A stretch of 6,181 bases of DNA from a virus (IMGVR_UViG_2693429562_000008), one strand, 5' to 3'. Shown: positions 1,701 through 4,549, counted from the stretch's first letter. The notes: generated by a model from the letters alone, not told the origin. Made by a program: numbers and translations.

Positions 1701-1729
1701 TTGCGGAATTAATTACGGACCGTTATTAT
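1701..1729 (+). promoter_or_regulatory. candidate sigma70 promoter for tRNA cluster 1
   Basis: TTGCGG (1701-1706), 17-nt spacer, TATTAT (1724-1729); the tRNA 5' end is 10 nt downstream. The same arrangement recurs before cluster 2. Confidence 0.4.
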
Positions 1730-1738
1730 TCTGCTCCC

Positions 1739-1814
1739 GGCCCTTTAGCTCAGTGGTGAGAGCGAGCGACTCATAATCGCCAGGTCGCTGGTTCAAATCC
1801 AGCAAGGGCCACCA
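1739..1814 (+). tRNA. ileZ: tRNA-Ile2 (anticodon CAU, lysidine type, reads AUA)
   Basis: Cloverleaf hand-folded: acceptor GGCCCTT/AAGGGCC, D stem GCTC/GAGC, anticodon loop CTCATAA, T stem GCTGG/CCAGC with TTCAAAT loop, encoded CCA. Very similar to E. coli ileX as recalled. Symbol follows the ileZ-argN-argO naming of lambdoid/Stx phages. Confidence 0.9.
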
Positions 1815-1821
1815 TCACAAA

Positions 1822-1901
1822 CCGCCATTAGCTTATCAGGAAGAGCAGACGACACGATAACAGGGTTGTTGGTGCGGGGGCGGGTCCCCGATGGCGGTCC
1901 A
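1822..1901 (+). tRNA. tRNA-like sequence, probably a degenerate or remodelled tRNA-Arg (argN position)
   Basis: Acceptor (CCGCCAT/ATGGCGG), D arm and CCA match the intact tRNA-Arg(UCG) at 4369-4445. The anticodon/variable region is replaced by a 28-nt segment with no canonical anticodon stem, and the T loop is a non-canonical GCGGGT. Confidence 0.5.
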
Positions 1902-1914
1902 TTATCGGTATTCA

Positions 1915-1991
1915 GCGTTGTTAGCTCAGCCGGACAGAGCAATTGCCTTCTAAGCAATCGGTCACTGGTTCGAATCCAGTACAGCGCGCCA
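1915..1991 (+). tRNA. argO: tRNA-Arg (anticodon UCU, reads AGA/AGG)
   Basis: Acceptor GCGTTGT/ACAGCGC (one G-U), D stem GCTC/GAGC, anticodon stem ATTGC/GCAAT with loop CTTCTAA, T stem ACTGG/CCAGT with TTCGAAT loop, encoded CCA. Confidence 0.9.
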
Positions 1992-2101
1992 TATTCATTC
2001 TTCCAGATTCCTTCCGGCAGAGCCTTATACTGAAATATACCTGGCTCAGGATATTGTTGAAAATATTTTATGTTTGTCAAAAATAAAAGTTCTGTTAAGT
2101 A

Positions 2102-2455
2102 TTGATTGAGTGTTTGTTATACGGTCTAATGGTTTTTTCAGCATTAAATATTTATCATTCATATGGTGTGGGTAGAGTGAATATTGATGAGGCGTCGGGG
2201 TGTTTCATCCTTAGGCAGCGTATTGATATAGTCAATGCAGCACGAGCAAAGGCCTTCAGCCGTTTGACAGTTTTGTTCTGTACTCCTGATCGTCTTTCGG
2301 GAAGAGACGTTATTATTCTGAATAGTGATGCTATACAGAGGGTTTGCGATGAGTTCATGGTTGCTAATTCAGAATTATTTGCTCTTGTTCAGGAGTACAA
2401 CAGAATAGCCAGGACCTGTGGTATGGATGAACTTCGGATTACTCATCTGGGGTAG
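2102..2455 (+). CDS. hypothetical protein in AT-rich island (117 aa from TTG; start uncertain)
   Basis: Only sizeable ORF in the AT-rich 1992-2460 segment. No clear Shine-Dalgarno; alternative starts ATG 2129, GTG 2168 and GTG 2177. Enriched in rare codons (ATA x3, AGA x3, AGG x3, CGA x1 in 117 codons). No domain recognised. Confidence 0.35.
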   Translation: MIECLLYGLMVFSALNIYHSYGVGRVNIDEASGCFILRQRIDIVNAARAKAFSRLTVLFCTPDRLSGRDVIILNSDAIQRVCDEFMVANSELFALVQEYNRIARTCGMDELRITHLG

Positions 2456-2602
2456 ATACATATCTGGATTATCACCTGTTACGGTAAAAAGTGATTGCTT
2501 ACTGTTTTTGTGAATGGCATTGCAGCAGCCGGATAATGTCAGTGCTGGCTGACGGTGTGCTGGTGGCGGGTGTGGTGGTTGTTGCTTTCCCGTTGCTGAA
2601 AA

Positions 2603-2739
2603 AGAAAACGCCAGACTGTTAGCCGGGTATCAGTTAGCGGGAGAAATTTTTAAATACTTCACAATTCAGGCGGTTGACTGTTGTCTGGTTTGCGGGGAGT
2701 TTGTTAAAAGAAACTGGCATGGTGAATCCCCCTGTGCGG
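2603..2739 (+). repeat. methyltransferase leader repeat, copy A (includes the MTase ATG at 2719)
   Basis: 137/137 nt identical to 5128-5264. The repeat may continue into the N-run that starts at 2740. Confidence 0.85.
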
Positions 2740-4245
2740 NNNNNNNNNNNNNNNNNNNNNNNNNNNNNNNNNNNNNNNNNNNNNNNNNNNNNNNNNNNNN
2801 NNNNNNNNNNNNNNNNNNNNNNNNNNNNNNNNNNNNNNNNNNNNNNNNNNNNNNNNNNNNNNNNNNNNNNNNNNNNNNNNNNNNNNNNNNNNNNNNNNNN
2901 NNNNNNNNNNNNNNNNNNNNNNNNNNNNNNNNNNNNNNNNNNNNNNNNNNNNNNNNNNNNNNNNNNNNNNNNNNNNNNNNNNNNNNNNNNNNNNNNNNNN
3001 NNNNNNNNNNNNNNNNNNNNNNNNNNNNNNNNNNNNNNNNNNNNNNNNNGGTTCACAAGCAAACCTCAGGCCCACTGCTTTGCGCAAAAGCAGAATGAGC
3101 CTATCAGAGACAGGCNNNNNNNNNNNNNNNNNNNNNNNNNNNNNNNNNNNNNNNNNNNNNNNNNNNNNNNNNNNNNNNNNNNNNNNNNNNNNNNNNNNNN
3201 NNNNNNNNNNNNNNNNNNNNNNNNNNNNNNNNNNNNNNNNNNNNNNNNNNNNNNNNCCCCGCCGTACTTTAAAGTGAAGCCTGAGGGCTGGGATAACCAG
3301 TGGAAGGGCGACGATGATTACCTGAAGTGGCTGGNNNNNNNNNNNNNNNNNNNNNNNNNNNNNNNNNNNNNNNNNNNNNNNNNNNNNNNNCGGGTGCTGA
3401 AACCTGCCGGAAGTCTTTACCTGTTCTGTGGTCATCGCCTGGCATCTGATATCGAAATCATGATGCGTGAACGCTTCAGTGTGCTGAACCATATTATCTG
3501 GGCGAAGCCGTCCGGACGCTGGAACGGATGCAACAAGGAAAGCCTGCGGGCGTATTTCCCCGCCACAGAGCGCATTCTGTTCGCGGAACATTATCAGGGG
3601 CCGTATCGTCCGAAAGATGCCGGGTATGCGGCGAAGGGCAGTGCACTGAAACAGCATGTGATGGCCCCGCTGATTTCTTACTTTCGTGATGCGCGAGCTG
3701 CCCTGGGGATAACGGCAAAACAGATTGCAGATGCCACAGGAAAGAAAAACATGGTGTCGCACTGGTTCAGTGCCGGTCAGTGGCAGTTGCCGAATGAAAG
3801 CGATTATCTGAAATTACAGGCGCTGTTTGCCCGGGTGGCAGAAGAGAAGCATCGGCGTGGTGAACTGGAAAAGCTCCACCACCAGCTGGTGGATACGTAT
3901 ACCTCACTGAACCGGCAGTATGCGGAGCTGCTGAGTGAATATAAACATCTGCGGCGGTATTTTGGCGTGACGGTGCAGGTGCCGTATACCGATGTGTGGA
4001 CGCATAAACCGGTGCAGTTCTATCCCGGGAAACATCCGTGCGAAAAACCGGCAGAAATGCTGCAGCAGATAATCAGCGCTAGCAGTCGTCCGGGTGACCT
4101 GATTGCAGATTTTTTCATGGGGTTGGGTTCGACAGTGAAAGCGGCACTGGCGCTCGGGCGTCGTGCAATTGGCGTTGAGCTGGAGACTGAACGTTTTGAG
4201 CAGACGGTTCGGGAAGTACAGGATTTAGTCAGCCAGAACGGATGA
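2719..4245 (+). CDS. DNA methyltransferase, N6-adenine/N4-cytosine family (PF01555-like, beta-class motif order); N-terminal boundary uncertain
   Basis: PPY of motif IV at 3259-3267 (preceding residue masked) and AdoMet motif I DFFMGLGSTV at about 4108-4137, close to the C-terminus. Host-like codon usage. Frame stays open through every readable fragment between N-runs, and ATG 2719 is in frame if N-run lengths are true. Start could instead lie inside the masked 3116-3256; the readable certain part is 3257-4245. Confidence 0.65.
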   Translation: MVNPPVRXXXXXXXXXXXXXXXXXXXXXXXXXXXXXXXXXXXXXXXXXXXXXXXXXXXXXXXXXXXXXXXXXXXXXXXXXXXXXXXXXXXXXXXXXXXXXXXXXXXXXXXXFTSKPQAHCFAQKQNEPIRDRXXXXXXXXXXXXXXXXXXXXXXXXXXXXXXXXXXXXXXXXXXXXXXXXPPYFKVKPEGWDNQWKGDDDYLKWLXXXXXXXXXXXXXXXXXXXRVLKPAGSLYLFCGHRLASDIEIMMRERFSVLNHIIWAKPSGRWNGCNKESLRAYFPATERILFAEHYQGPYRPKDAGYAAKGSALKQHVMAPLISYFRDARAALGITAKQIADATGKKNMVSHWFSAGQWQLPNESDYLKLQALFARVAEEKHRRGELEKLHHQLVDTYTSLNRQYAELLSEYKHLRRYFGVTVQVPYTDVWTHKPVQFYPGKHPCEKPAEMLQQIISASSRPGDLIADFFMGLGSTVKAALALGRRAIGVELETERFEQTVREVQDLVSQNG

Positions 4246-4247
4246 TA

Positions 4248-4276
4248 TTGAAGAATTAATTACGCGTCGTTATTAT
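4248..4276 (+). promoter_or_regulatory. candidate sigma70 promoter for tRNA cluster 2
   Basis: TTGAAG (4248-4253), 17-nt spacer, TATTAT (4271-4276); the tRNA 5' end is 10 nt downstream. The -35 overlaps the MTase stop codon region. Confidence 0.4.
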
Positions 4277-4285
4277 GCGGCTCCC

Positions 4286-4361
4286 GGCCCTTTAGCTCAG
4301 TGGTGAGAGCGAGCGACTCATAATCGCCAGGTCGCTGGTTCAAATCCAGCAAGGGCCACCA
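4286..4361 (+). tRNA. ileZ: tRNA-Ile2 (anticodon CAU), second copy
   Basis: Identical in sequence to 1739-1814. Confidence 0.9.
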
Positions 4362-4368
4362 TCACATA

Positions 4369-4445
4369 CCGCCATTAGCTCATCAGGAAAGAGCGCCAGC
4401 CTTCGAAGCTGGCTGCGCGGGGTTCAAGTCCCCGATGGCGGTCCA
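4369..4445 (+). tRNA. argN: tRNA-Arg (anticodon UCG by hand fold)
   Basis: Acceptor CCGCCAT/ATGGCGG, D stem GCTC/GAGC, anticodon stem CCAGC/GCTGG with loop CTTCGAA, T stem CGGGG/CCCCG with TTCAAGT loop, discriminator T, encoded CCA. Symbol assigned by position in the ileZ-argN-argO order, not by sequence identity. Confidence 0.8.
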
Positions 4446-4458
4446 TTATCTGCATCAT

Positions 4459-4535
4459 GCGTTGTTAGCTCAGCCGGACAGAGCAATTGCCTTCTAAGCA
4501 ATCGGTCACTGGTTCGAATCCAGTACAACGCGCCA
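4459..4535 (+). tRNA. argO: tRNA-Arg (anticodon UCU), second copy
   Basis: Same as 1915-1991 except one acceptor-stem change that turns the G-U pair into A-U. Confidence 0.9.
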
Positions 4536-4549
4536 CACTTATTTTCCCT

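Follow-up and report, generated by a model that had tools for sequence, protein, structure and literature searches.

Two tRNA cassettes in one lambdoid prophage scaffold: probable mis-scaffolding of alleles from two prophage loci in a draft assembly

The stretch of DNA analysed here, which we refer to throughout as the window, comprises 6,181 nucleotides (nt) assigned to a virus (IMGVR_UViG_2693429562_000008) and is recognisable from its sequence as a late-regulatory region of the lambdoid prophage type; a BLAST search with the whole window matched thousands of Escherichia coli prophages and Stx-converting phages. Its first part carries the Holliday-junction resolvase gene rusA, the gene for the late antiterminator Q, a likely pR' promoter and the tR' terminator, followed by a module of transfer RNA (tRNA) genes; a second such module follows a DNA methyltransferase (methylase) gene (Table 1). 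Five tRNA genes are present, all on the plus strand, and ARAGORN and the Rfam tRNA model agree on them: module 1 has genes of the ileZ and argO types separated by a dead argN element, and module 2 has intact ileZ-, argN- and argO-type genes. A preliminary description of this DNA had regarded the two modules as a segmental duplication in which only the middle tRNA diverged. We consider it probable (roughly 80%) that the window is instead a draft-assembly scaffold, consisting of five contigs joined by estimated gaps, and that its two cassettes are adjacent only by mis-scaffolding.

The resemblance between the modules is not in doubt. In a self-BLAST comparison, 1699-2004 and 4246-4547 were 87.7% identical (E = 4e-99), far beyond chance, in accord with the recurrence of the module (1706-1991) at 4253-4535 reported in the preliminary description. 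As also stated there, the two CAU tRNA copies are identical (76/76 nt), and the two Arg(UCU) copies are one acceptor-stem base apart, the sole difference being at tRNA position 70, where G or A stands opposite U4 (G.U versus A-U, both pairing). The anticodons, which had been folded by hand, were returned likewise by ARAGORN when run on both clusters (CAU and UCU in module 1; CAU, UCG and UCU in module 2). ARAGORN labels the CAU tRNA as Met by its anticodon alone; RefSeq/PGAP labels the identical sequence tRNA-Ile, and the phiP27 record names it ileZ. By its sequence, this tRNA is of the Ile2 type, which would be read as isoleucine via TilS-dependent lysidine. Homology upstream of the modules begins at approximately position -38, beyond which lie the T run of tR' in the case of module 1 and the methylase stop codon in the case of module 2.

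Table 1. Features of the 6,181-nt window, in order of position
Feature	Position	Strand	Basis or remark
IS2-type insertion sequence (IS) element end, terminal 33 nt, scaffold left end	1-33	-	100% match to L139 8103-8135 and L070 4934-4966, beside a 121-residue HTH_Tnp_1 transposase open reading frame (ORF)
rusA, Holliday-junction resolvase	411-785	+	Pfam RusA, E = 2e-16
Late antiterminator Q, 284 residues	782-1636	+	Pfam Antiterm, E = 7e-55; exact protein in finished chromosomes
Likely pR' (TTGATT 1601-1606, 16-nt spacer, TAAATT 1623-1628), short leader and tR'	1601-1701	+	Sequence; putative function
tR' terminator, stem 1676-1695 and T run	within 1601-1701	+	Terminator search
Promoter-like site, module 1: TTGCGG, 17-nt spacer, TATTAT	1701-1706, 1724-1729	+	Sequence
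ileZ-type tRNA (anticodon CAU, Ile2/lysidine type), copy 1	1739-1814	+	ARAGORN; Rfam, 72.5 bits
Dead argN (pseudo-tRNA)	1822-1901	+	Uncalled by ARAGORN and Rfam; alignment
argO-type tRNA-Arg(UCU), copy 1, G70 opposite U4	1915-1991	+	ARAGORN; Rfam
ORF108, AT-rich phage gene, 108 residues	2129-2455	+	phrog_2873, E = 4e-70 over full length
DUF3927 small membrane-protein gene	2491-2622	+	Pfam DUF3927, E = 2e-27; phrog_1470
137-nt stretch identical to 5128-5264, including the 5' part of an STnc100-type small RNA (sRNA) gene (2647-2739)	2603-2739	+	Ends exactly at N run; single copy in finished genomes
N run 1, 310 nt	2740-3049		Hides junction from first remnant to methylase piece
Two sequence islands (3050-3115 and 3257-3334), methyltransferase upstream region and 5' end, split by N run 2	3050-3334	+	BLAST to L001/L004/L139
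N run 2	3116-3256		Between the two methyltransferase islands
N run 3, 56 nt	3335-3390		66 homologous loci have exactly 23 nt
N6/N4 DNA methyltransferase gene, 3' 855 nt	3391-4245	+	Pfam N6_N4_Mtase, E = 4e-31; 99.4% DNA identity to L139
Promoter-like site, module 2: TTGAAG, 17-nt spacer, TATTAT	4248-4253, 4271-4276	+	Sequence; promoter scan
ileZ-type tRNA (CAU), copy 2, identical to copy 1	4286-4361	+	ARAGORN; Rfam
argN-type tRNA-Arg(UCG), intact	4369-4445	+	ARAGORN; Rfam, 58 bits
argO-type tRNA-Arg(UCU), copy 2, A70-U4	4459-4535	+	ARAGORN; Rfam
Intrinsic terminator after module 2, 7-bp stem (6 G-C pairs), then T8	4550-4575	+	Terminator search
Second STnc100-type sRNA gene, 5' part, ends at N run	4571-4650	+	92.5% identical to other two copies
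N run 4, 477 nt	4651-5127		Hides junction back to first remnant
Rest of first remnant: DUF3927 end, STnc100 sRNA, iraM-like gene, truncated DUF1737 gene	5128-6153	+	100% identity to ten finished chromosomes
STnc100 sRNA, full length	5213-5402		Rfam RF02076, 132 bits
iraM-like gene	5428-5763	-	phrog_4407
IS600-family element, terminal bases, scaffold right end	6154-6181	+	36-mer in 756 Escherichia/Shigella plasmids, beside IS600-family transposase gene

The adjacency of the modules rests on four N runs (2740-3049, 3116-3256, 3335-3390 and 4651-5127), which the preliminary description did not mention. There is an N run at every join between the pieces, and both junctions of the putative duplicated segment lie inside such runs, unsequenced. 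Two anchor spacings in the methylase region are invariant among homologous loci, at 23 nt (66 loci) and 120 nt (67 loci), with the former also present in a 99.4%-identical Shigella boydii copy (L139); the window has 56 nt (across N run 3) and 148 nt (across N run 2), respectively, and these departures from invariant values indicate that the N runs are estimated scaffold gaps. A real insertion of the extra 33 nt in the methylase was considered and rejected, since the longest relative, P0001 (386 residues), has no insertion there, nor do the methylase protein homologues have one at the site of N run 3. P0001, a protein from a public short-read contig (2,026 nt), has an internal near-duplicate of 34 residues (YKHLRRYFGVT...GKHPC, occurring twice) that is in no other relative, and it looks like another assembly chimera of methylase-gene alleles. 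The STnc100-type sRNA gene is present in the window as one full copy and two 5' fragments (2647-2739 and 4571-4650), both of which stop at N runs; each of the relatives has a single STnc100 copy, which follows the tRNA cassette or, in L002, stx2B, and the full copy in L004 scores 139 bits.

The outer contigs provide the most direct evidence on the first locus. Positions 2603-2739 and 5128-5264 are 100% identical over 137 nt, with the former ending and the latter beginning exactly at an N run. Finished chromosomes were found by look-up of the exact Q protein; ten loci were read, with a further 11 similar places existing beyond those ten. In ten of ten, window 1-2739 corresponds to 7220-9958 and window 5128-6181 to 9822-10875, at 99.93-100% identity, an alignment in which the outer contigs share 137 nt and have no other sequence separating them. 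When merged, they equal the 3,656-nt IS-to-IS locus of the finished genomes at 99.9-100% identity, with a single cassette. The longest contig with the exact Q protein is 2-5 kb in 1,139 of 1,407 collection blocks, which fits a 3.66-kb IS-to-IS locus. Both IS junctions of the window (1-33 and 6154-6181) occur base for base in the ten finished chromosomes, with IpaH-type genes nearby, which argues that the locus is an IS-trimmed prophage remnant in a Shigella-type genome; IS ends at both scaffold termini are, moreover, typical of short-read contigs. We take the left-hand element to be IS2 from its terminal repeat, and one of the finished chromosomes, HE616528.1, to be that of Shigella sonnei 53G, with which the nearby IpaH-type genes would fit. 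In four E. coli relatives (L001, L003, L004 and L005) hok/sok modules (Rfam sok, 107-117 bits) lie about 1.6-2 kb upstream of rusA; in the window an IS end stands in place of the region that holds them.

Comparison with relatives separates the outer and inner pieces into two layouts. In the first (L003 and L005), Q and tR' are followed by the cassette, ORF108, DUF3927 and the STnc100 sRNA; in the second (L002 and L004), Q and pR' are followed by a small ORF, the methylase, the cassette, a terminator and the sRNA. A mixed layout is found in L001, where ORF108, DUF3927 and the sRNA come after a methylase-type context. Each of the five has a single module. Window positions 408-2739 and 5128-6153 correspond to the first layout, and 3050-4650 to the second; in CP001063.1, which is from a different strain, the inner piece stands on its own as an IS-bounded remnant. 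The breakpoint between the cassette-first and methylase-first mosaics is directly after the T run of tR'. In relatives, the cassette lies after Q or a DNA methylase, with holin and lysozyme genes downstream, and in many E. coli and Shigella genomes it is present in several prophages per genome.

Taken together, these results suggest that the outer contigs (1-2739 and 5128-6181) would be parts of one IS2/IS600-bounded lambdoid remnant, overlapping by 137 nt in the genome, with the order rusA, Q, pR'/tR', ileZ-dead argN-argO, ORF108, DUF3927, STnc100 sRNA, iraM-like gene and truncated DUF1737 gene. The inner pieces (3050-4650) would be part of a second lambdoid late region, comprising a methyltransferase gene, ileZ-argN-argO, a terminator and an STnc100-like sRNA gene, which most likely resides elsewhere in the chromosome. 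Exact repeats common to both loci, of 87 nt in ileZ, 69 nt in argO and 37 nt or more in the sRNA gene, are long enough to entangle an assembly graph, and they are probably the reason why the scaffolder placed the inner pieces where it did, between the outer contigs. The placement of the second cluster beside the first would then be an assembly artefact, as indicated by the unfaithful N runs and the 137-nt overlap, and the segmental duplication proposed in the preliminary description most likely does not exist in any genome.

Some points weigh against a mis-join. The sole exact context recovered for the methylase/module-2 piece is in another Shigella species. The flanking gaps are sized at 310 and 477 nt, whereas a simple mis-join via the shared sRNA predicts negative gaps. 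These contig ends would also result from a real insertion with a 137-nt direct repeat on either side, and if the N runs were later, length-preserving masks, which is unlikely, both length discrepancies would be real insertions. Two ideas that concern what the N runs hide or how the pieces might be joined were rejected. Concealed stx genes would not fit, because the runs are too short and the relatives have no stx at those places. The 137-nt/STnc100 element was also considered as an alternative pR' that would enable a homologous join upstream of the methylase; this was ruled out because the Q-methylase intergenic regions of L001 and L004 have no similarity to it and Rfam places STnc100 only downstream of cassettes.

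The alternative that survives best, albeit as an unlikely one, is that the arrangement is real, recombination having inserted part of another lambdoid late region (methylase, cassette 2, terminator and sRNA) into the first remnant. One such route would be single-crossover integration of a circular fragment at DUF3927/STnc100, leaving a direct repeat of at least 137 nt and two cassettes. Identical 137-nt stretches on both sides are also expected from a Campbell-type insertion, breakpoints in the strongly mosaic late regions of lambdoid phages fall at terminators, and the scaffolder reported positive gaps. However, the junctions are unsequenced and the gap lengths unreliable, and the arrangement is absent from at least 10 finished genomes with 100% identical flanks. 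Spacing-tolerant BLAST of both junctions against 5,426 complete E. coli genomes, in which a window-like place would rank first, returned only standard layouts, with neither DUF3927/sRNA joined to the methylase upstream region nor module 2 joined to the 137-nt stretch being found in window order. Of 120 cassette-bearing viral contigs, none has two modules in one contig, each having one, and gapped patterns for both hidden junctions gave 0 matches in viral, genome and metagenome collections, at the reported and at about 30-nt shorter spacings. A real insertion would need two junctions never seen elsewhere. It is rather improbable that a single late region of this isolate truly holds both cassettes, some 2.5 kb from each other, through insertion of a second-prophage fragment at the 137-nt repeat. 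Were it so, that late region would have five working tRNA genes and one dead one, together with three STnc100-type sRNA starts, a combination unseen in the other genomes examined.

With mis-scaffolding as the preferred explanation for the adjacency, the differences between the modules become a matter of allelic variation. Module 1 is identical to the allele in L001 and L003, and 99-100% identical to those in the ten finished chromosomes; module 2 is nearly identical (99-100%) to the L139 and L004 alleles. With only 87.7% identity to one another, the two copies are not mutual closest relatives, and, on sequence grounds, they are alleles of a known prophage cassette and not fresh paralogues.

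The middle gene has a history of its own. In the copy-1 element (1822-1901) the acceptor and D arms are retained, and the anticodon arm and T-loop are gone (GGGGGCGGGTCCCC in place of GGGGTTCAAGTCCCC); neither a tRNA nor any other Rfam family was found there even at E<=1, and ARAGORN likewise made no call. The preliminary description had correctly recognised an intact tRNA-Arg(UCG) in copy 2 and a rewritten anticodon region in copy 1, the loss of the T-loop being unmentioned. Among 127 modules, 82 have three tRNAs, 35 have an anticodon arm rewritten as in module 1, a further 5 or more show other kinds of argN loss, and one, in viral contig L024, has the middle anticodon TCT and not TCG, giving it two Arg(UCU) genes. 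Overall, roughly a third of the sampled cassettes have lost argN. The dead allele itself has 20 identical copies among the 127 modules. Within its class the former T arm has a G run of variable length (5 to 14 G), as expected under neutral decay, and there are also scattered point changes and a 1-nt deletion. The G runs of 9-14 G are in viral contigs L087, L121 and L122, and may be due to slippage in a tract without function or to errors in sequencing a homopolymer. The genome of phiP27, a published Stx2e phage (L128 5322-5422), has an intermediate dead argN, with the anticodon arm rewritten and the T-loop intact, and its record annotates only ileZ and argO; the middle element of module 1 is close to this ileZ-argO spacer. 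The intermediate form implies that argN decayed stepwise, the anticodon arm first and the T-loop later, and that this decay is older than the window locus.

The three genes of the cassette are under very unequal constraint, with ileZ being much more constrained than argO, and argO more than argN: in 115 viral-contig modules nucleotide diversity (pi) is 0.004 for ileZ, 0.047 for argO, 0.088 for recognisable argN and 0.23-0.39 for the flanks. In E. coli, CGA and CGG are already covered by tRNA-Arg(ICG) and tRNA-Arg(CCG) of the host, and the AUA and AGA/AGG codons are served by the scarcest host tRNAs. By standard decoding, argN (UCG, for CGA/CGG) would duplicate host tRNA reading and may be under weak selection, leading to its repeated decay, and ileZ and argO would be needed for rare-tRNA codons, which may be why only the middle gene differs. 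It is very unlikely that the dead middle element is instead a re-purposed structured RNA under selection; one allele is indeed frequent (20 identical and 35 of the same type among the 127 modules), but prophage spread accounts for that frequency, and the homopolymer expansions, point changes and deletion within the allele class, the stepwise loss seen with phiP27 and the lack of an Rfam family at E<=1 all argue for a pseudogene.

The allele comparisons effectively exclude the least credible alternative, i.e. a recent in-situ tandem duplication of the promoter and three-tRNA module with subsequent rewriting of the middle gene: the modules do have that appearance, since they lie some 2.5 kb from each other, point the same way and share an ileZ that is identical and an argO that is nearly so, but their flanks and spacers are 12% apart, their upstream contexts (tR' versus the methylase 3' end) are unrelated, the dead argN allele predates the locus, being identical in unrelated E. 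coli prophages and having a precursor in phiP27, and the ileZ identity reflects strong constraint everywhere (pi 0.004) and not recency. The preliminary reading of a segmental duplication with later divergence of one copy is likewise not upheld, since each module is 99-100% identical to outside alleles and the two are 12% apart mutually.

The cassette appears, from sequence conservation, to have its own sigma-70-type promoter approximately 10 nt upstream of ileZ. On single-sequence evidence both module sites are unremarkable: a promoter scan passes the module 2 site and leaves that of module 1, whose -35 element matches 3/6 bases, uncalled, and the count of promoter-like sites in the region is within the range of shuffled sequences. 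Across 119 modules, the -35 TTG, the 17-nt spacing and TATTAT are kept in four upstream contexts; these represent three different spacers, one being common by descent to the methylase-end and tR' contexts, and the two other contexts having unrelated spacers. The hexamers of the TTGnnn-17-TATTAT promoter previously assigned to each module are present, and the conservation in 119 modules makes a dedicated promoter plausible. If it is real, a lysogen could express the cassette tRNAs without late-gene antitermination.

With respect to codon supply, the earlier remark that the neighbouring AT-rich ORF is rich in ATA, AGA, AGG and CGA holds, in that these are 10 of the 108 codons of ORF108 (9.3%), versus 1.1-4.0% in rusA, Q and the methylase; such rare-codon usage is typical of AT-rich accessory genes. 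In the iraM-like gene, ATA accounts for 6 of 13 Ile codons. By standard decoding rules the cassette would supply tRNA-Ile2 for AUA and tRNA-Arg(UCU) for AGA/AGG, of which the adjoining AT-rich accessory genes (ORF108 and the iraM-like gene, and stx in Stx phages) may be heavy users. Neither ORF108 nor the iraM-like protein had a Pfam match in a Pfam search of the window proteins, and ORF108 is unannotated in three E. coli relatives from RefSeq (L001, L003 and L005).

Several other features of the window were observed. The pR'-like promoter lies inside the 3' end of the Q frame and is followed by a leader of approximately 70 nt and then by the tR' hairpin, a layout that is repeated in L001. A sub-gathering Rfam match to Trp_leader (1596-1702) is probably an artefact of terminator shape, and one to Plastid-ycf2 on the reverse strand of ileZ, also sub-gathering, is taken as an artefact of tRNA shape. 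The methylase has FFMGLGST (at about 4110-4135) where the four close relatives retrieved have FFMGSGST; the substitution of Leu for Ser in this FxGxG-type motif may have inactivated a gene already in decay, or may come from an error in sequencing.

The overall results carry a caution, i.e. that lambdoid remnants in Escherichia and Shigella share exact repeats, including tRNA genes, sRNA genes and IS ends, by virtue of which draft scaffolds can simulate duplications. They also provide modest real findings, in the form of the apparent conserved cassette promoter, the unequal constraint on the genes and an argN decay series from phiP27 to the window allele. The current understanding of phage tRNAs is unchanged, the cassette being already known.

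Phage genomes are usually fragmented in draft genomes (PMC7067040), and, as in other short-read drafts of near-identical lambdoid prophages, the window has contig breaks at IS and shared prophage sequence, unreliable gaps and overlapping ends; compared with chimeric draft assemblies, the mis-join here is inferred and not demonstrated from reads. STnc100 is a prophage-encoded sRNA often found near tRNA matches (bioRxiv preprint 10.64898/2026.05.13.724894). In the window, STnc100 (RF02076) flanks the tRNA modules, lying outside the tRNA cassette, and is relevant only as a repeat common to both loci. Lambdoid phages commonly have tRNA genes immediately after Q, with the proposed role of supplementing host tRNAs for codons favoured by the phage (PMC3636060). 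Those of SfI, Sf6, ST64T and P21 share with the window cassette the slot downstream of Q and the proposed role, but encode different tRNAs (Asn and Thr) and have no sequence relationship to it.

The closest known system is the ileZ-argN-argO cassette of Stx and other lambdoid phages. Phage records annotate its genes under these names between Q or a DNA methylase and stx; the naming used here rests on database records and PMC4631060, literature searches on ileZ/argN/argO having found nothing relevant. Three tRNA genes are present in 933W, Min27, VT2-Sakai, Stx2-II and 86, and two in phiP27 (PMC4631060). The gene order and anticodons (CAU, UCG, UCU) are as in module 2, with module 1 having the first and third genes and a remnant of the second, and the cassette records have 88-100% nucleotide identity to the window modules; the Stx2a phage LC567834, for instance, is 88.5% identical to window 1699-2006 and 94.4% identical to 3391-4573. 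The slot is also the same, in that it follows Q (and often also a DNA methylase) and precedes the accessory and lysis genes, with Q (782-1636) and tR' (1676-1701) directly preceding module 1. In contrast to Stx phages, there are no stx genes after either module of the window and, unlike in phiP27, the dead argN of the window has decayed further, its T-loop also being lost.

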